Assembly: GCA_016432525.1 (NCBI GenBank)
Contig: CP066693.1
Coordinates: 785,639-849,638 of the forward strand
DNA length: 64,000 nucleotides
Direction of reading: 5' to 3'
DNA from: Candidatus Woesebacteria bacterium
GTDB lineage: Bacteria; Patescibacteriota; Microgenomatia; UBA8517
The stretch's first letter is position 1; each line of letters begins with the position of its first letter. The position numbers and the translations under genes were made by a program. Below the pieces are notes generated by a model. The model had not been told where the DNA came from. It ran no database searches and saw nothing but the letters and a program-made list of their open reading frames with translations. Positions 19,280 through 25,461 of this stretch are shown here, one piece after another.

Positions 19280-19663
19280 TCACCTCTCTCTAAACTGGGG
19301 GTTTATAGAGACATTAGTTGCAGTCACAGAACCATCAGAATTGGTAGTTCCTAAAACTAAAACTTCTTTTCCATTAGATAAATCAGATTTCGCAGCAGTT
19401 GTTGATTGTGTTATAGTCGTAGAATCAGTAAGTATTACTATTTTACTTGAACCATCTTGCATTTTAACTGTTATACTTTTGTCATCCATACTTAATATTT
19501 GACCAACAACAGGCCTATTTCCCCCTCTAATTTGTGTTCTATTTTGAGCAAGTTGACCAAGATTGGATCTTTGTCCTTTCTGGTAAGTAACTCCTCCAAA
19601 AAATCCGCCTCCCAATCCTACTAAAAGAGCAACAATTGCAAGAATTAAAGTATTTTTCTTCAT
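19280..19663 (-). CDS. small secreted protein (DUF5666-like beta-rich domain)
   Basis: Signal peptide plus a Gly-rich region, then KSITVKMQDGSSKIVILTDSTTITQ...GSVTATNVSI. Confidence 0.4.
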   Translation of the reverse strand: MKKNTLILAIVALLVGLGGGFFGGVTYQKGQRSNLGQLAQNRTQIRGGNRPVVGQILSMDDKSITVKMQDGSSKIVILTDSTTITQSTTAAKSDLSNGKEVLVLGTTNSDGSVTATNVSINPQFRER

Positions 19664-19668
19664 TTAAA

Positions 19669-20535
19669 TCACCCCCTTTGTGAATTGAAATAATCAAAAA
19701 CGTTTTTTGAAATTACAGATTCGCGAACAGCTGACTGAGAAGGATCATCACTTTCAGACATCAAAACTATTATGTAATCGCCATTTTTTGTATAAACTAT
19801 TCCAGCATCATGATAAAAGTTATCTATATCACCAGTTTTATGTGCAATTGCAATTTCAGAAGGTAAATATTTAGGGATAACATCATTTAGAGTTTGCTCT
19901 TTCAGAAGCTCAACCATTTCAGATGAAGAGCTAGAATCGACTATTTCACCTTTATAAAGCTTTTCAAAAAAACTAGCTACATCATAAGCAGTAGTCATTG
20001 GCTCATTGGTTTCATCCCCAAAATCTGATTCACTAAAATTAAACTTCTTCATAAAAGAAGATATGTTGACAGCCGTAAGTTTGTTGGTCAAAGCAAAAGC
20101 AGAAGAATTATCAGAGACTGTTACCATTTGATTTAAGGCATCTCCGACTGTAAGCGATACTTCCGTTAAATAATCAGAAAGACTTAGGTTATTACTTTTG
20201 ATTTCATTATATGCCTCCCCCATCACCCAAAGCTTATAAAGGCTACCAGCTTTGAATTTCATATGTTCATTAAAAGAATATGATTCGTTAGTTTTAAGAT
20301 TCTTTATAAATATTGCATAAGTGCCGTTTGCCCCATTCATAGCATCATCAACGATTTTGCTAAGATCATTAACCAAATTTATTTCATCCGCCAAAACTTT
20401 AGCAGAAATCGCGTCTGTAGGTTTGTGTGAATCAGAAATAATCTTAGCAGATGACTCTCTAAACAAATTTCTGACTGTCAAAAAAACAATCAATATAAAG
20501 GTAGCTAAAAATATTAATACAAAAATATTTTTCAT
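19669..20535 (-). CDS. class A beta-lactamase-like serine hydrolase
   Basis: SxxK (AGSLYK), SDN (TVSDNS) and KTG (HKTGDI) motifs in the expected order and spacing. Signal peptide present. Confidence 0.65.
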   Translation of the reverse strand: MKNIFVLIFLATFILIVFLTVRNLFRESSAKIISDSHKPTDAISAKVLADEINLVNDLSKIVDDAMNGANGTYAIFIKNLKTNESYSFNEHMKFKAGSLYKLWVMGEAYNEIKSNNLSLSDYLTEVSLTVGDALNQMVTVSDNSSAFALTNKLTAVNISSFMKKFNFSESDFGDETNEPMTTAYDVASFFEKLYKGEIVDSSSSSEMVELLKEQTLNDVIPKYLPSEIAIAHKTGDIDNFYHDAGIVYTKNGDYIIVLMSESDDPSQSAVRESVISKNVFDYFNSQRG

Positions 20536-21759
20536 TTATTCATATCTCAATGCTTCAATAGGTTGCAAATTGGCTGCTCTTTGAGCTGGATACCAGCCAA
20601 ACAAAACTCCAACGAGAGCCGAAACTACAAATGCTATAAGAATCGATGGGGTTGAAATGAAAAATGTTGATTTATTAACTAATGAATACAAATAAGAGAC
20701 TAAAATTCCCAAAACAATTCCCATACTTCCTCCAGTAAATGTTAGAATTATCGACTCAATCAAAAATTGTCTTACAATAACGTTTTTCTTAGCTCCTAAT
20801 GCCTTTCTGAGACCAATTTCGCGAGTTCGCTCTGTTACTGTAACAAGCATTATATTCATAATTCCAATCCCTCCTACAACAAGTGAAATTGCTGCAATCC
20901 CAGAAAGCAATGTCGTAAAAGTTGATGTTGTGGAATTTGCAGTATTTAAGATATCTTGCTGCGAAAGAATAGAAAAATCGGCTTGCGTGGGATCGCTTAA
21001 TTTATGCCTTGCTAAAAGAAGATAACCTACTTGATTTTGCGCCTCAGTCATAACATCAGCACTTTTCGCCTCTAGTGATATATTGCTTAGATAAGTCTGT
21101 CCAAATACTTGTTTTTGAGCAGTTGATAATGGTATATAGATAACATCATCCTGGTTCAAAAATCCACTTCCACCTTTTGAAGTAGCAACTCCCACAACTC
21201 TAAAAGAAGTCCCTTTAATACGGATATTTTGTCCTATTGGATTACTACCTTCGCCAAACAAATCAGACACAACTTGAGGGCCCAAAACCACTACTTTCGC
21301 AATACCAGCATCATCCTGATCAGTAATGAATACTCCAGAATCCATTGTAACTTTATGAACGCTAGCATAAATACTTGTAACACCGTTTACTCGTACATTT
21401 GTATTATTTTTTCCAGCAACTACTTGTGCTCTTTGATTAATCTCAGAAGAAACCGCACTTACTGTTGTTATTGCAGAATCGGTCTTTATAGCTTCAGCAT
21501 CCGCGTTAGTAAGTGTAGTTTCTGATCCCGCAGCTCCACGAACCGCTCCTGTTCTTTGAGAGCCTGGATTGACCGTCAAAAGATTCGCCCCAAGTGATTG
21601 TATTTGAGATTGAATCGCCTCTTGCGATGCCTGCCCCAAAGAAACCAAGGCAATAACGGATCCGATTCCAATGACAATTCCAAGCATAGCCAAACCAGTT
21701 CTAAGCTTATTTATAGTCAAAGTTCCAATAGCTTCAGTTATTAATTTAACGTTTTTCAT
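20536..21759 (-). CDS. ABC transporter permease, MacB/FtsX-type
   Basis: N-terminal transmembrane helix, large extracytoplasmic domain, and three C-terminal transmembrane helices (FtsX fold). Confidence 0.8.
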   Translation of the reverse strand: MKNVKLITEAIGTLTINKLRTGLAMLGIVIGIGSVIALVSLGQASQEAIQSQIQSLGANLLTVNPGSQRTGAVRGAAGSETTLTNADAEAIKTDSAITTVSAVSSEINQRAQVVAGKNNTNVRVNGVTSIYASVHKVTMDSGVFITDQDDAGIAKVVVLGPQVVSDLFGEGSNPIGQNIRIKGTSFRVVGVATSKGGSGFLNQDDVIYIPLSTAQKQVFGQTYLSNISLEAKSADVMTEAQNQVGYLLLARHKLSDPTQADFSILSQQDILNTANSTTSTFTTLLSGIAAISLVVGGIGIMNIMLVTVTERTREIGLRKALGAKKNVIVRQFLIESIILTFTGGSMGIVLGILVSYLYSLVNKSTFFISTPSILIAFVVSALVGVLFGWYPAQRAANLQPIEALRYE

Positions 21760-23765: not shown

Positions 23766-23798
23766 AGTCTAGTCACCAATCCTGAAAGCAGGCTGAAA

Positions 23799-24791
23799 TC
23801 AAATAGGCAGAAGAATTGAAAAAGTTGATCCTTTATTTGGCTCGCTTTTGACATTAATACTTCCTTTATGATCTTCAACAATTTTCTTCGCGATAGAAAG
23901 TCCAAGTCCATACCCCCCACTGCCTACTTTAGACCTGGCAGAATCAGCCCTATAAAATCTGTCAAAAATATGGGCAATGTCGCTCTTTTTGATTCCTATT
24001 CCAAAATCAGTAATTTGAATTAAGACAGATCCATCAATTTTTTTGGAACTTACAATAACTTTACTCTTTTCAGTACTATATTTAATTGCGTTATCCAAAA
24101 CTACAACAAGAAGCTGAACAAGAGATTCCTGATCACAACTTATCTTATAATCATTGATATTAGTTGTTATTTTTATTTCTTTTTGAGACGCAATCGAGCT
24201 TACTTTATGAAGAGATGTATCAATTATTTTCTTTAAAGATTGTTTTCTGAATTCAGTTTTTCCATTTTGTCGATGAGAAGTTAATTGCAAAAGTGAATCC
24301 GAAAGTGATTGTAGTTTGTTAACCTCCACAATACTTTCAGTAATTAAACTCTTTGTTTCTTGTAAAGTATGTTTCTTTTCCCGCAAATACACTTCCATTG
24401 CGATTTTCAAAGAAGTAAGAGGAGTTCTAAATTCATGGGATGCATCAGATACAAATCTGTTTTGCTCATCCATCATTGCAGCAATTGGAGAAAGTGTGCG
24501 GCCAGCCAAAAGAAATCCTGTTCCTCCTGAAATCACAAAGATTGCCCCATTAATAAATCCTAAGGTCAAAAGTATTCTTCTTTTAGTTTCTTCAAATATT
24601 TCAGGATCAATTATTTGCTGAGGAAAAAGCCCAAAATCAAACCTTCTCTCAACTCTAGACCGCTGCATTGCCGCAATTCTATCGATCTCGCTAACTAAAG
24701 ATCTATAAATTACAACACTAAAACTACAACTTATTACCATTATGATAAGAAGATACCAAGCAGTGAGTTTGAGACGCGCTGAATTAAACAT
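23799..24791 (-). CDS. sensor histidine kinase
   Basis: Two transmembrane helices, H-box HEFRTPLTSL, and N/G boxes (DNAIKYS, GGYGLGLSI). Confidence 0.85.
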   Translation of the reverse strand: MFNSARLKLTAWYLLIIMVISCSFSVVIYRSLVSEIDRIAAMQRSRVERRFDFGLFPQQIIDPEIFEETKRRILLTLGFINGAIFVISGGTGFLLAGRTLSPIAAMMDEQNRFVSDASHEFRTPLTSLKIAMEVYLREKKHTLQETKSLITESIVEVNKLQSLSDSLLQLTSHRQNGKTEFRKQSLKKIIDTSLHKVSSIASQKEIKITTNINDYKISCDQESLVQLLVVVLDNAIKYSTEKSKVIVSSKKIDGSVLIQITDFGIGIKKSDIAHIFDRFYRADSARSKVGSGGYGLGLSIAKKIVEDHKGSINVKSEPNKGSTFSILLPI

Positions 24792-25461
24792 ATGTTAGCT
24801 TATATCCAAAACCACGAACTGTACTAATAAGTGTCTTGTCACCTTTAAACGGAGCGTCAATTTTGGAACGAATATTTTTAATATAAACCTCTACTGTGTT
24901 TGGTAAAATGTCTGCGTCGTAATTCCAAACATGATTTATAATTTCATTTTTAGTCACAACTTTGCCTTTATTTCTCATTAGATACTCTAAAAGAGAAAAT
25001 TCACGACTAGAAAGAATAATGCTTTTACCTTTACGTTTAACCTCGTAAGTTTTAGAGTCCAAAGTTAGATCTCCCGCTTCAAGCCTATTTGAAACGAAAT
25101 CTTTGGGCCTACGAGTTAATGCCCTAATTCTGGCCAAAAGCTCTTCAAAAGAAAATGGTTTTGTAAGATAATCATCAGCTCCACTATCAAGCCCTTCAAT
25201 CTTGTCGCGAATTAGTCCCTTAGCAGTCAAAATCAAAATTGGAGTATGTACATTTGATTCTCTGAGTTTTTTACAGATTGTTATTCCATCCATTCCAGGA
25301 AGAAGTAAATCCAAAACTAAAAGATCATAATCCTCTGTCGAGGCCAAATCAAAGCCAGTTGTTCCATCATACGAAACATCAACAGCATACCTTTCATCAG
25401 TAAGTCCTTTTTTAATGGTGTTGGCGATTCTATGCTCATCTTCTACAACAAGGATTCTCAT
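24784..25461 (-). CDS. OmpR-family response regulator
   Basis: Receiver domain (MRILVVEDE...DLLLPGMDG...) plus a winged-helix output domain (VYIKNIRSKID...RGFGYKL). Confidence 0.9.
   Translation of the reverse strand: MRILVVEDEHRIANTIKKGLTDERYAVDVSYDGTTGFDLASTEDYDLLVLDLLLPGMDGITICKKLRESNVHTPILILTAKGLIRDKIEGLDSGADDYLTKPFSFEELLARIRALTRRPKDFVSNRLEAGDLTLDSKTYEVKRKGKSIILSSREFSLLEYLMRNKGKVVTKNEIINHVWNYDADILPNTVEVYIKNIRSKIDAPFKGDKTLISTVRGFGYKLTYV

Follow-up and report, generated by a model that had tools for sequence, protein, structure and literature searches.

Several Gram-positive MacB systems, among them YknXYZ, Spr0693-0695 and AS-48EFGH, operate with an adaptor subunit, and the MacAB-like pumps YknXYZ and Spr0693-0695 provide protection against peptides (PMC5985334). 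Both YknXYZ(-YknW) of Bacillus and Spr0693-0695 of S. pneumoniae combine a MacA-type adaptor, held by an N-terminal transmembrane (TM) anchor, with a separate ABC ATPase and a four-TM MacB-type permease that carries a large extracytoplasmic domain. The same parts are encoded by the Candidatus Woesebacteria locus described here, whose host, like those of YknXYZ and Spr0693-0695, belongs to an organism group that is not known to have an outer membrane. The precomputed Pfam families of adaptors from orthologous modules include Beta-barrel_YknX and YknX_C. However, there are also clear differences from these systems. The pump is encoded in one operon with a dedicated two-component system, and the operon has a conserved promoter box. 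In place of the multi-pass YknW, the fourth partner is DUF5666, an OB-fold protein with a single TM helix, and by sequence the permease resembles Gram-negative MacB (4e-66) more closely than it does Spr0695.

In the BceRS-BceAB systems of Firmicutes, as in this locus, the kinase lacks an extracytoplasmic sensor domain and its gene lies beside that of a MacB-superfamily ABC transporter, which the kinase presumably controls. The original prediction had drawn this parallel. Since the module kinase lacks a sensor domain, the comparison is fair at the level of function (sense-and-pump logic), and it makes sensing through the transporter plausible. The likeness does not extend to the permease, since BceB has ten TM helices and no adaptor, whereas the module permease is of the four-TM MacB type and is accompanied by a MacA-like adaptor.

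Envelope-stress circuits of E. coli include BaeSR, with mdtABCD and spy, and CpxAR, with cpxP. In these circuits, genes for an OmpR-family two-component system accompany those for an efflux pump with an adaptor, as they do in the module, and the system also drives, as it would in the module, the separate promoter of a small helical protein that is secreted. The circuits are positively autoregulated via direct repeats near the -35 position, and this would also be the mode of control in the module. In contrast to the RND pump of E. coli, the module pump is of the ABC/MacB type. Furthermore, no relationship of its helical protein (dn160) with Spy, CpxP or ZraP could be detected, its host is a Patescibacterium, and its kinase lacks a periplasmic sensor domain. 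Our main reading, to which we assign a probability of roughly 0.55, is that positions 18706-25502 (minus strand) constitute an autoregulated envelope-stress or detoxification regulon.

Organization of the locus

The window is the whole stretch of DNA that was analysed, 64,000 nucleotides in length. Seven genes in the open reading frame list lie within 19280-25461, all on the minus strand, and the unit further includes an eighth gene, three promoter boxes and a terminator outside these limits. In transcriptional order, the features are as follows.

25484-25502, minus strand: regulator box P1, direct repeat TTTTCAGCggaTTTTCAGC with an 11-bp period (sequence read, exact pattern match)
24784-25461, minus strand: OmpR/PhoB-family response regulator, 225 aa (Pfam Response_reg 2e-29, Trans_reg_C 4e-26)
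23799-24791, minus strand: histidine kinase, 330 aa (Pfam HisKA and HATPase_c)
23781-23799, minus strand: regulator box P2, ATTTCAGCctgCTTTCAGG, just 5' of the adaptor gene (pattern match)
22515-23765, minus strand: MacA/YknX-like membrane fusion protein, the adaptor (Pfam HlyD_D23, HlyD_3)
21756-22508, minus strand: ABC ATPase resembling the MacB nucleotide-binding domain and LolD/FtsE (Pfam ABC_tran 2e-34)
20536-21759, minus strand: MacB-type permease (Pfam MacB_PCD 9e-45 and FtsX 1e-21)
19669-20535, minus strand: membrane-anchored PBP-A-like serine hydrolase, BLA (Pfam Beta-lactamase2 2e-39)
19280-19663, minus strand: small secreted DUF5666 protein (Pfam DUF5666 5e-8, 33.6 bits against a cut-off of 27)
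19259-19277, minus strand: regulator box P3, TTTTAAGCataATTTCAGA, 5' of the eighth gene (pattern match)
18750-19232, minus strand: dn160, the eighth gene, for a secreted helical protein whose Patescibacteria family is uncharacterised
18706-18724, minus strand: intrinsic terminator-like hairpin (8-bp stem with 7 G-C pairs, T-run)

The locus had been described as six co-directional, abutting genes led by the kinase. The genes are indeed co-directional and tightly packed, but they number seven, the regulator gene precedes the kinase gene, and a gap of 33-45 nt separates the kinase from the adaptor. The regulator and kinase genes overlap by 8 nt, and the ATPase and permease genes by 4 nt; 6 nt lie between adaptor and ATPase, none between permease and BLA, and 5 nt between BLA and DUF5666. 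Co-directionality is weak evidence of a unit here, because the minus-strand gene run around the module spans 18004-35712. Stronger ties join the two-component system to the MacA/MacB-type exporter, as had been proposed, both physically and through a conserved cis-element, and Pfam bears out the earlier domain calls (MacB_PCD with FtsX, HlyD_D23, Beta-lactamase2).

About 25 related Patescibacteria module loci were compared, most of them from metagenome-assembled genomes of related lineages, such that counts are not phylogenetically independent. Synteny was read from three independent anchors, namely BLA loci, permease metagenome loci and DUF5666 contigs. The conserved core comprises the regulator, kinase, adaptor, ATPase, permease and DUF5666 protein. 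Thus, the predicted conservation of a six-gene block holds for these members, including the small secreted protein, which is co-conserved with the two-component system and exporter, but not for the hydrolase, which is absent from 10 of 11 independently anchored module loci. A sensor and efflux-pump module of this kind, apparently self-regulated, is common to many ultra-small Microgenomates bacteria.

The two-component system and its candidate promoters

Regulator orthologues in module loci are 59-76% identical. The kinase has two TM helices by hydropathy (residues 7-34 and about 73-95), and domain and hydropathy analysis found neither a sensor domain nor HAMP; the DHp H-box comes straight after TM2. 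The loop between the helices is short and variable, with 25-65 aa across orthologues, as compared to a few residues in BceRS-type kinases. Because the kinase lacks a ligand-binding domain and its TM1 is strongly conserved among orthologues, the signal is probably sensed inside the membrane or via a partner, which could be the pump, the DUF5666 protein or the helical protein.

The regulator boxes are direct repeats with the consensus TTTCAGC-N4-TTTCAGC. At P1, the box is followed by 8 nt, a TATAAT element (25475-25470), another 8 nt and then the ATG of the regulator gene, which is a leaderless arrangement. A -10-like element, TAGACT, is present for P2 at 23771-23766, and P3 has the -10 element TATAGT at 19249-19244. 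Of 22 distinct orthologous loci, 21 have the same architecture of box plus TATAAT 5' of the regulator gene, where 0.06 would be expected. Likewise, a box is found 5' of the adaptor gene in L019, L022, L050, L052, L072, L081 and L082, and boxes equivalent to P3 precede the eighth-gene homologue in L001, L046, L048 and L050. In L022, a box at 16326-16341 lies just upstream of a dn160 homologue located by tblastn at 16363-16863.

A strict version of the pattern has 21 matches in 25 module loci (0.63 expected), every one of them on the module strand, and none in 72 non-Patescibacteria MacB loci. Seventeen of these matches are directly 5' of regulator, adaptor, DUF5666 or dn160 genes. A further three, in L022, L081 and L072, are in corresponding positions to which the script gave no label (in L072 the labelled regulator reading frame starts upstream of the box), and the remaining one, in L084, is about 250 nt 3' of the amidase gene following the permease, with no assigned gene. 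The entire 64-kb window contains four pattern matches, three of which are P1, P2 and P3. The region is not enriched in a generic sigma-70 scan, a point against the regulon reading.

Position and conservation make the box a candidate binding site of the regulator. Kinase and regulator would then drive three promoters, in each of which the direct repeat would take the place of the -35 element. P1 would serve the regulator and kinase themselves through a leaderless mRNA, and P2 the adaptor, ATPase, permease and the genes after them, here the PBP-A-like hydrolase and the DUF5666 protein. P3 would produce the secreted helical protein, and the strong terminator-like hairpin directly 3' of the eighth gene would close the unit.

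The efflux pump

The adaptor scores 105.2 bits against TIGR01730 (RND_mfp), above the cut-off of 94.9, and aligns over its full length with its closest solved relative, E. coli MacA (2.5e-21). Translation probably begins not at TTG 23765 but at ATG 23753 or 23744, and an N-terminal TM anchor lies at 14-41. The C-terminus consists of SPF and a Gly/Arg-rich tail ending GGLRGGFGGGGFVRVGGR. Such a tail had been thought unusual, but the module orthologues whose C-terminus is complete all have SPF with a tail after it, in most cases Gly/Arg-rich, apart from those of L081 and L086, which diverge to SAF with an Asn/Ser- or Gly/Met-rich tail, and many MacA-like adaptors unrelated to these have low-complexity tails of a similar kind.

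The ATPase, encoded separately from the permease, matches the NCBIfam MacB N-terminal region at 5.7e-71, and its translation contains the Walker A (GPSGSGKST), signature (LSGGQ) and Walker B (LLADEPT) motifs. The permease has four TM helices, the first two of which are separated by a large extracytoplasmic core domain, and its solved relatives are MacB of A. baumannii (4e-66), MacB of E. coli (8e-65) and Spr0695 of S. pneumoniae (2e-41). The adaptor had been taken as a sign of a double membrane or thick envelope, but it need not mean a double membrane, because the Gram-positive YknXYZ, Spr0693-0695 and AS-48EFGH systems have adaptors (PMC5985334). The pump would instead be of the single-membrane YknXYZ/Spr0693-0695 kind. 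Movement of its extracytoplasmic domain, driven by ATP, would most likely push toxic amphiphiles, for example antimicrobial peptides, off the membrane's outer face and out through the channel of the adaptor.

The beta-lactamase-like gene and its variable slot

The SxxK, SDN and KTG motifs reported earlier for BLA are present (S98-L-Y-K101, S141-D-N143, K233-T-G235), and S98, K101, S141, N143 and K233-T-G235, including the catalytic Ser and Lys, are invariant across 28 aligned homologues. Assignment to the class A beta-lactamases does not hold, however. On alignment with class A enzymes, Glu166, which defines the class, is absent and the omega loop is 10 residues shorter; the score against NCBIfam bla_class_A is 57.5 bits, with a cut-off of 200. 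Among solved proteins, BLA is closest to PBP-A (Tll2115) of Thermosynechococcus elongatus and to LRA-5, a 'beta-lactamase precursor'; both likewise combine a class A fold and the SxxK, SxN and KTG motifs with an omega loop that lacks a catalytic Glu. PBP-A ranks first against the family profile (6e-23), and both proteins come after 4ewf among the top folds for the AF2 model (pLDDT 89.5). Sequence identity is only about 20%, and the omega-like loop is four residues shorter still than that of PBP-A. In the window protein, another 22 residues are missing between SxxK and SDN, a segment that borders the active-site cleft and is kept in all other family members sampled. PBP-A acts as a DD-carboxy/endopeptidase (PMC11189452), and BLA is predicted to be a cell-wall enzyme of the DD-peptidase type.

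BLA appears to be a lineage-specific passenger in the slot between permease and DUF5666. Because it occupies this variable slot in the window lineage, it would be co-expressed with the pump. In other lineages, Amidase_3, S9/S15 alpha/beta hydrolases or GSDH are found there instead.

Such occupants could point to an FtsEX-like controller of wall remodelling, in which mechanotransmission via the adaptor and/or DUF5666 protein would switch extracytoplasmic peptidoglycan enzymes, the two-component system would report wall status, and no substrate would be exported. Peptidoglycan-active types are found in the slot (a PBP-A-like DD-peptidase in the window, L017 and L019, and Amidase_3 in L084), the accessory proteins are all predicted to be membrane-anchored or secreted, and the MacB fold is common to FtsEX and LolCDE, which act by mechanotransmission (PMC5985334). 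Even so, we consider this function unlikely. The permease has MacB_PCD rather than an FtsX-type domain (263 bits against MacB models, 21-25 against FtsX), and a full-length MacA-like adaptor is present here, whereas FtsEX systems have none. Moreover, the slot is without a wall enzyme in most module loci, and its commonest occupants besides BLA are alpha/beta hydrolases with no substrate assigned.

It is quite unlikely that the seven genes form one conserved antibiotic sensing-and-detoxification module, with the hydrolase destroying a beta-lactam or peptide antibiotic that the pump exports. BLA does abut the permease stop codon inside the P2 unit, the identical gene order is repeated in L017, L019 also has BLA in the slot, and the three catalytic motifs are intact. 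BLA-family genes are near the two-component system, within fetched flanks of up to 10 kb, in 11 of 80 loci as opposed to about 1.3 by chance. Yet BLA is missing from 10 of 11 independently anchored module loci (fetched flanks of about 0.7-10 kb per side), and its place and orientation vary, being before the regulator, after DUF5666 or divergent. No BLA gene in the scan of module loci has its own regulator box, and the departures described above (Glu166, the short omega loop, the low class A score and the 22-residue deletion at the cleft) also speak against a beta-lactamase.

The DUF5666 protein and the secreted helical protein

Returning to the regulon reading, the DUF5666 protein is predicted to have an N-terminal TM helix, a disordered Gly/Gln/Arg linker and an extracytoplasmic OB-fold barrel (AF2 model: helix 3-23, disorder 30-46, barrel 52-120, pLDDT >90). 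It follows the pump in all six distinct DUF5666-anchored loci (eight places, with two near-duplicate pairs) and in five of the six permease-anchored loci with sufficient downstream flank, and is the conserved sixth member of the module.

No Pfam family matched dn160, and its 976 homologues are labelled 'hypothetical' apart from a few stray, mutually inconsistent JGI labels. The protein has a signal-like hydrophobic segment at 10-31; an alternative start, GTG 19214, has GGAGG on its 5' side. The gene adjoins the same two-component system in L046, L048, L050 and L169, and several homologues carry C-terminal Gly/Met/His-rich tails. Near some modules there are cupredoxin genes and Met/His-rich tails, a hint of metal stress as an alternative.

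A response to copper or similar metals, in which a CusR/CopR-like regulator would control a pump, OB-fold protein and Met/His-tailed helical protein that handle extracytoplasmic metal, is nevertheless very unlikely. The best NCBIfam match of the regulator is a heavy-metal subfamily (239.9 bits) and the kinase matches RppB and CopS-type models, but both score under the family cut-offs (279.2 for the regulator). Cupredoxin genes lie 3' of DUF5666 in L017, L072 and L085, only 3 of about 20 loci. CusF is among the Foldseek matches of the DUF5666 barrel, although these are generic OB-folds only, all weak (E >= 3e-3), and the invariant residues of DUF5666 include no Met, His or Cys. The known CusR/CopR boxes are palindromic, unlike the direct repeat of the module, and no characterised MacB-type pump is known to be a metal exporter. 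The substrates of MacB-type pumps in PMC5985334 are consistent with this.

Linkage and separability of the module

That the genes are mere neighbours in a mostly co-directional, tightly packed genome, as the long minus-strand run and equally short gaps between unrelated genes (16 nt from pilus cluster to regulator) might suggest, can hardly be entertained when the six core genes stay linked across loci with wholly different flanking genes, pilus genes are not conserved neighbours, and a common cis-element marks the promoters of the unit; it is reasonable only for the beta-lactamase-like gene. The parts of the regulon are separable, since L046, L048, L053 and L169 have the two-component system and helical protein with no pump within the flanks, and L166 keeps the pump without an adjacent regulator.

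Gene Content and Genomic Setting

The original description of the genes was accurate overall, and every one of its domain calls was upheld by Pfam and NCBIfam. However, the block consists of seven minus-strand ORFs instead of six, and the regulator gene, not the kinase gene, comes first. An eighth ORF, called dn160, encodes a secreted helical protein, and putative box promoters (P1 to P3) precede the regulator, the adaptor, and dn160.

Features of the locus and of the adjoining pilus cluster (coordinates, strand, description)
24784-25461, minus: response regulator (RR), OmpR/PhoB-type; Pfam Response_reg and Trans_reg_C
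23799-24791, minus: histidine kinase (HK); HisKA and HATPase_c
22515-23765, minus: adaptor (membrane fusion protein, MFP); HlyD_D23/HlyD_3, TIGR01730 above cut-off
21756-22508, minus: ABC ATPase (NBD); ABC_tran 2e-34
20536-21759, minus: permease (PERM); MacB_PCD 9e-45 and FtsX 1e-21
19669-20535, minus: beta-lactamase-like protein (BLA); Beta-lactamase2 2e-39
19280-19663, minus: small protein; Pfam DUF5666 5e-8
18750-19232, minus: dn160, the eighth ORF; alternative start GTG at 19214, no Pfam family
18724-18706, minus: strong terminator-like hairpin, directly 3' of dn160
25502-25484, minus: regulator box P1, upstream of the regulator
23799-23781, minus: regulator box P2, upstream of the adaptor
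19277-19259, minus: regulator box P3, upstream of the ORF at 18750-19232
30725-32401, minus: PilB-like T2SSE ATPase, pilus cluster
29656-30720, minus: PilC-like T2SSF protein, pilus cluster
26047-26541, 26960-27583, and 29225-29659, minus: three N_methyl pilins, pilus cluster

The shared orientation of these genes is uninformative by itself, because they lie within a minus-strand run that extends from 18004 to 35712 (ORFs of at least 120 aa). The only plus-strand ORFs of that size in this interval are three short ones, each nested in a minus-strand gene. Directly upstream of the module is the type IV pilus cluster (25478-32401, minus strand), which is separated from the regulator gene by only 16 nt but is not a conserved neighbor in the compared loci. 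Rfam and tRNA scans of the whole window gave no matches. Just outside the module are genes for a Fic/DOC-domain protein (16972-17955), a cupin (16499-16870), and an MFS transporter (15311-16480), all on the plus strand. A Fic gene in L161 and a Cupin_2 gene in L162, two of the homologous loci compared with the window (L numbers), are likewise near the module, possibly by coincidence.

A Conserved Core with a Variable Enzyme Slot

Synteny was compared from three independent anchors, namely the hydrolase, the permease, and the DUF5666 protein. The hydrolase-anchored set comprises 80 genome loci, all from Patescibacteria by record title or content. A regulator orthologue (at least 55% identity) is present in only 11 of these loci, and thus the hydrolase genes mostly stand alone; the pump is present in only six. 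These 11 loci are nonetheless about ninefold more than chance would give, since random placement in a 1-Mb genome predicts 1.3.

When the permease serves as the anchor, the order HK-MFP-NBD-PERM is retained in all eight orthologous metagenome loci (at least 56% identity), as far as the contigs extend. RR precedes HK in each of the five loci with a long enough upstream flank, and DUF5666 lies downstream in five of the six loci with sufficient flank, L084 being the one without it. The hydrolase gene was found in none of these eight loci. Starting from DUF5666, MFP-NBD-PERM lies immediately upstream in all six distinct contigs, RR-HK is ahead of the pump genes in five of them, and the hydrolase occurs in one, ahead of the regulator. 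Together, the three anchors define the conserved unit as RR-HK-MFP-NBD-PERM-(0-3 genes)-DUF5666. Of the block of genes for which a synteny search was originally proposed, this six-gene core is co-conserved, but the hydrolase is mostly missing and its placement varies.

The interval between PERM and DUF5666 is a variable slot that can hold a lineage-dependent enzyme. The hydrolase resides inside this slot in the window, L017, and L019, whereas elsewhere it is found after DUF5666 (L022, L072), before the regulator (L050, L168), or in divergent orientation (L004). Other occupants are S9/S15-type alpha/beta hydrolases (L162, L167, L083, and two in L019), a glucose/sorbosone dehydrogenase (L162), and an Amidase_3 cell-wall amidase (L084). 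These slot enzymes of other lineages each begin with a hydrophobic segment, as would fit secreted or membrane-anchored proteins.

Slot regions in homologous loci
L162: 6966-9004
L167: 7928-9004
L019: 10908-13005
L083: 11267-11948
L084: 11225-11983

Two peculiarities of the compared records can be mentioned here. In the metagenome locus L093 (7018-11217), the kinase, adaptor, and permease each appear as two split matches, reflecting either frameshifts in a decaying module or assembly errors. Also, many of the loci numbered L001 to L080 (L003, L005, and L007, among others) are titled "uncultured Gammaproteobacteria" and carry the same Patescibacteria-type genes, with hydrolases 36-47% identical to that of the window. 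These labels on public metagenome-assembled genomes look wrong.

A Putative Regulator Binding Site

The regulator ATG lies 16 nt from the pilus-cluster gene, and the sequence TTTTCAGCggaTTTTCAGCaaataagcTATAATatagcctcATG covers these nucleotides along with the end of the upstream ORF. The layout in this region is two TTCAG(C) half-sites 11 bp apart, a spacer of ~8-9 nt, TATAAT, another 6-12 nt, and the ATG. Of 22 distinct orthologous loci, 21 have this layout ahead of the regulator gene, whereas first-order Markov shuffles of the regulator-upstream regions yield a mean of 0.06 such loci. Among box-bearing orthologous loci (in the range L004-L168), a Shine-Dalgarno sequence is absent before the regulator ATG. 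The regulator mRNAs appear to be leaderless, both in the window (TATAAT region 25461-25475, minus strand) and in the 21 of 22 orthologous loci.

The distance from the box, with consensus TTTCAGC-N4-TTTCAGC, to the -10 hexamer is 8-9 nt at P1 and P3 and ~11 nt at P2. Target promoters of OmpR/PhoB-type systems carry a direct-repeat binding site of ~11-bp period at or near -35, and such a repeat is present. A strict version of the pattern yields 21 matches in 25 module-bearing loci, compared with 0.63 expected and a maximum of three in 30 shuffles. All 21 are on the module strand, and 17 are directly upstream of regulator, adaptor, DUF5666, or dn160 genes; three others occupy equivalent positions left unlabeled by the script, and one lies in L084 without an assigned gene. 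There are no strict matches in 72 MacB loci from other phyla. The 64-kb window contains four, which are P1, P2, P3, and one within an unrelated opposite-strand gene. Hydrolase genes, including the free-standing ones, have no box of their own at any locus examined.

These counts are restricted to the box-plus-(-10) pattern, since loose half-sites give a high background when no -10 hexamer is required (103 observed versus ~64 expected). A generic sigma-70 promoter scan was uninformative (24 sites versus 28.5 expected), and promoters were detected solely by comparison of orthologous upstream regions. The position and conservation of the box suggest that it is a binding site for the regulator, placed like the site of a PhoB-type activator.

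Regulator and Kinase

The two-component pair is of the OmpR/PhoB type, as Pfam assigns receiver and winged-helix domains to the regulator and HisKA and HATPase_c to the kinase. Against TIGR01387, which represents CzcR/SilR/CopR heavy-metal regulators, the regulator scores 239.9 bits, under the cut-off of 279.2. Kyte-Doolittle hydropathy windows, used for all transmembrane (TM) segments, place two such segments in the kinase, the first of which is highly conserved (KLTAWYLLIIM). The loop outside the membrane is ~40 aa in the window and 25-65 residues in orthologues, and the H-box helix begins directly after TM2, with no HAMP and no sensor domain. For comparison, the intramembrane-sensing kinases of Bce-type modules have a minimal extracytoplasmic loop. 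The variation in the loop and the immediate start of the H-box thus disfavor a folded ligand-binding domain. These characteristics argue for a kinase that would sense within the membrane or through a partner.

A MacB-Like Pump

The permease has four TM segments (residues 19-46, 280-310, ~332-361, and 364-393), and it combines a MacB core domain between TM1 and TM2 with a C-terminal FtsX module, as is characteristic of MacB-type (type VII) transporters. Its closest solved proteins are MacB from A. baumannii (4e-66) and E. coli (8e-65), followed by S. pneumoniae Spr0695 (2e-41). The ATPase, a protein of 250 aa, carries Walker A (GPSGSGKST), signature (LSGGQ), and Walker B (LLADEPT) motifs. Orthology with E. 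coli MacB was considered and rejected, since the NBD and permease, fused in E. coli MacB, are here encoded by separate genes that score 239.6 and 263.5 bits compared with the NCBIfam equivalog cut-off of 966. Judged by sequence, the pump is MacB-like in architecture and not a MacB orthologue. The resemblance to BceRS-BceAB originally suggested does not extend to the permease: BceB has ten TM segments with a large TM7-TM8 loop and works without an adaptor, whereas the window system has four TM segments, MacB_PCD after TM1, and an adaptor.

The adaptor scores 105.2 bits against TIGR01730, over the cut-off of 94.9, and has an N-terminal TM anchor (residues 14-41). Its closest solved protein is E. 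coli MacA (2.5e-21), matched over the full length (residues 15-377). No gene for an outer-membrane factor (TolC-type) was found among the HMM-scanned ORFs of the window. The adaptor had initially been taken to suggest a double-membrane or thick-envelope context, but a double membrane should no longer be deduced from it, as adaptors are established in bacteria that lack an outer membrane. Nor is its Gly-rich tail unusual, as had been thought. Module adaptors share a C-terminal SPF motif and a tail that is Gly/Arg-rich in most (window 22515-22600, minus strand; L004-L157). Many MacA-like adaptors of unrelated bacteria end in (S/N)PFMP followed by comparable tails rich in Gly, Pro, Arg, and Asn, which makes the tail a recurrent trait of the family.

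The window pump can be likened to YknXYZ of Bacillus and Spr0693-0695 of pneumococcus, which are of the single-membrane kind. These two systems confer protection from peptides, with adaptors that are proposed to lead compounds off the membrane through the wall zone; Gram-positive systems that contain adaptors function without an outer-membrane factor (PMC5985334).

The Beta-Lactamase-Like Protein

The catalytic Ser and Lys, on which the original prediction for this protein hinged, are both in place: the equivalent of Ser70-x-x-Lys73 is S98-L-Y-K101, invariant in 28 sequences. Ser130-Asp-Asn and Lys234-Thr/Ser-Gly correspond to S141-D-N143 and K233-T-G235, whose key residues are likewise invariant; in the wider family the middle position of the SDN motif varies, reading SHN in 38 members and SDN in 30. 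The label of class A beta-lactamase does not hold, however. The family profile and alignment contain no conserved Glu, and no invariant acidic residue, at the position of Glu166, which is the deacylation base of class A enzymes. The profile also has a 10-residue gap at the omega loop relative to solved class A enzymes, and the score against NCBIfam bla_class_A is 57.5 bits versus a cut-off of 200.

The match to Pfam PF13354 reaches 135.4 bits (gathering score 22), and the best match of the family profile is PBP-A of T. elongatus (6e-23), with a 4-residue gap where the engineered L158E sits. An AF2 model (pLDDT 89.5) gives 4ewf, PBP-A (2j7v, 2j9o), and LRA-5 as best Foldseek matches (TM-score ~0.72), and both PBP-A and LRA-5 lack Glu166. 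Considering score, modeled fold, and relatives without Glu166, the protein is best classified as a PBP-A-like serine hydrolase related to class A beta-lactamases. PBP-A is a DD-carboxypeptidase/endopeptidase, and the absence of the omega-loop Glu is its key difference from beta-lactamases (PMC11189452).

The window copy carries a 22-residue in-frame deletion between SxxK and SDN (residues ~114-130) that is absent from all other sampled family members (~78). The spacing of the two motifs is 43 residues, compared with 65 in 61 of the ~78. A profile alignment to class A enzymes maps the deleted stretch to the segment bordering the substrate cleft. AlphaFold still predicts a compact fold for the window copy. 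The predicted activity of this copy is uncertain because of the deletion, and it could be a decaying copy, a specialized variant, or an assembly error. With its N-terminal TM helix and disordered linker, the hydrolase is predicted to act outside the membrane. The "beta-lactamase" annotation at this locus should not be taken to denote an antibiotic-resistance gene. Care must likewise be taken in metagenome resistance surveys, given the large Patescibacteria Beta-lactamase2 family that lacks the catalytic Glu and is DD-peptidase-like.

DUF5666 and dn160

The DUF5666 protein scores 33.6 bits against PF18914 (gathering score 27) and has 1274 homologues, most with this domain. In its model, a disordered Gly/Gln/Arg linker joins a TM helix to a six-stranded barrel, for which the pLDDT is >90. 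CusF and CcmE occur among the structural matches of this OB-fold model, but roles as a CusF-like metallochaperone or a CcmE-like chaperone are unsupported, as the OB-fold matches are weak and generic (E at least 3e-3). No Met, His, or Cys is conserved in the family, and the searchable literature on DUF5666 offers incidental mentions only.

The dn160 family comprises ~976 Patescibacteria proteins without a Pfam family. Its features are a signal-like N terminus, a helical composition, an invariant DGK-(I/L)-T-x-x-Q-K, and, in many members, a Gly/Met/His-rich C-terminal tail. The LTxxQ-like motif and these tails suggested a homologue of CpxP/Spy/ZraP or Skp, but this candidate was rejected for lack of support. 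Pfam scans gave no match for seven of seven members, and profiles of seven and 50 sequences searched against the PDB reached a best E of 0.03 (Skp) or 0.045.

In L046, L048, and L169, dn160 adjoins the same two-component system with no pump nearby. The last of these, a dn160-anchored contig (3449-10675), encodes an alpha/beta hydrolase, a BLA-family hydrolase, the regulator, the kinase, dn160, a DUF2079 protein, and a LiaF-like_C protein, with a Zn-ribbon gene on the opposite strand between the BLA-family hydrolase and the regulator. The same envelope genes thus gather around the two-component system even without the pump.

Regulatory Model and Rival Explanations

The best-supported reading, with a probability of roughly 0.55, is that the locus forms an autoregulated regulon serving envelope stress or detoxification. 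The regulator would switch on the pump operon, dn160, and the leaderless operon in which it is itself encoded, and the pump would be of the single-membrane kind. The hydrolase, or the amidase or alpha/beta hydrolases in other lineages, would be variable passengers that come under the stress response by being carried in the slot. What the pump exports, what signal the system senses, and what DUF5666 and dn160 contribute are inferred.

Two-component systems are known to lie beside MacB-superfamily transporters, and adaptors are known from bacteria that have no outer membrane, and so the core finding is unsurprising; it is in itself ordinary for a MacAB-like pump to have a two-component system as its neighbor. 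As far as the searchable literature shows, what is new is the six-gene architecture in Microgenomates, the DUF5666 and dn160 partners, the box with predicted leaderless autoregulation, and the variable enzyme slot. Nothing specific was found in the literature on two-component systems or efflux in Patescibacteria or Microgenomates. Most Patescibacteria have not been cultured and live attached to another cell, and to our knowledge almost nothing is known of their gene regulation and envelope homeostasis. A conserved two-component system, a recognizable box, a MacB-type pump, and two uncharacterized partner families offer a concrete, testable regulon for this group.

A more specific proposal is tentative, and somewhat unlikely when taken whole. 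It holds that the six-gene core and dn160 form an undescribed flux-sensing envelope-stress regulon that is widespread in the Microgenomates branch. The kinase, having no sensor domain, could read the working state of the MacB-type pump, and the membrane-anchored OB-fold DUF5666 protein and secreted dn160 could be signaling accessories. Through the slot, stress control could extend to a secreted enzyme of the lineage's own, whether a DD-peptidase, an amidase, an alpha/beta hydrolase, or a sugar dehydrogenase. If true, this would be the first defined transcription-factor regulon in this uncultured group, with a binding box and a leaderless autoregulated mRNA.

Wall enzymes are present in the slot, as might be expected if the transporter were an FtsEX-like controller of such enzymes, but this is unlikely given the presence of an adaptor, a domain of the MacB type, and many loci in which the slot is empty. 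An integral beta-lactam or peptide detoxification module, as in the original prediction, is quite improbable for a locus whose hydrolase is so often missing from the core. A metal response is also improbable. In its favor, the regulator scores close to the threshold for CusR/CopR-type factors and there are three cupredoxin genes nearby; against it, the scores stay below threshold and the DUF5666 protein has no metal ligands.

The cupredoxin genes themselves are small and lie directly after DUF5666 in L017 (11270-11719), L085 (12232-12672), and L072 (9078-9599), and they carry the type-1 copper site motif YYCSVGNHRQMGM. Their location may point to a connection with copper or redox stress.
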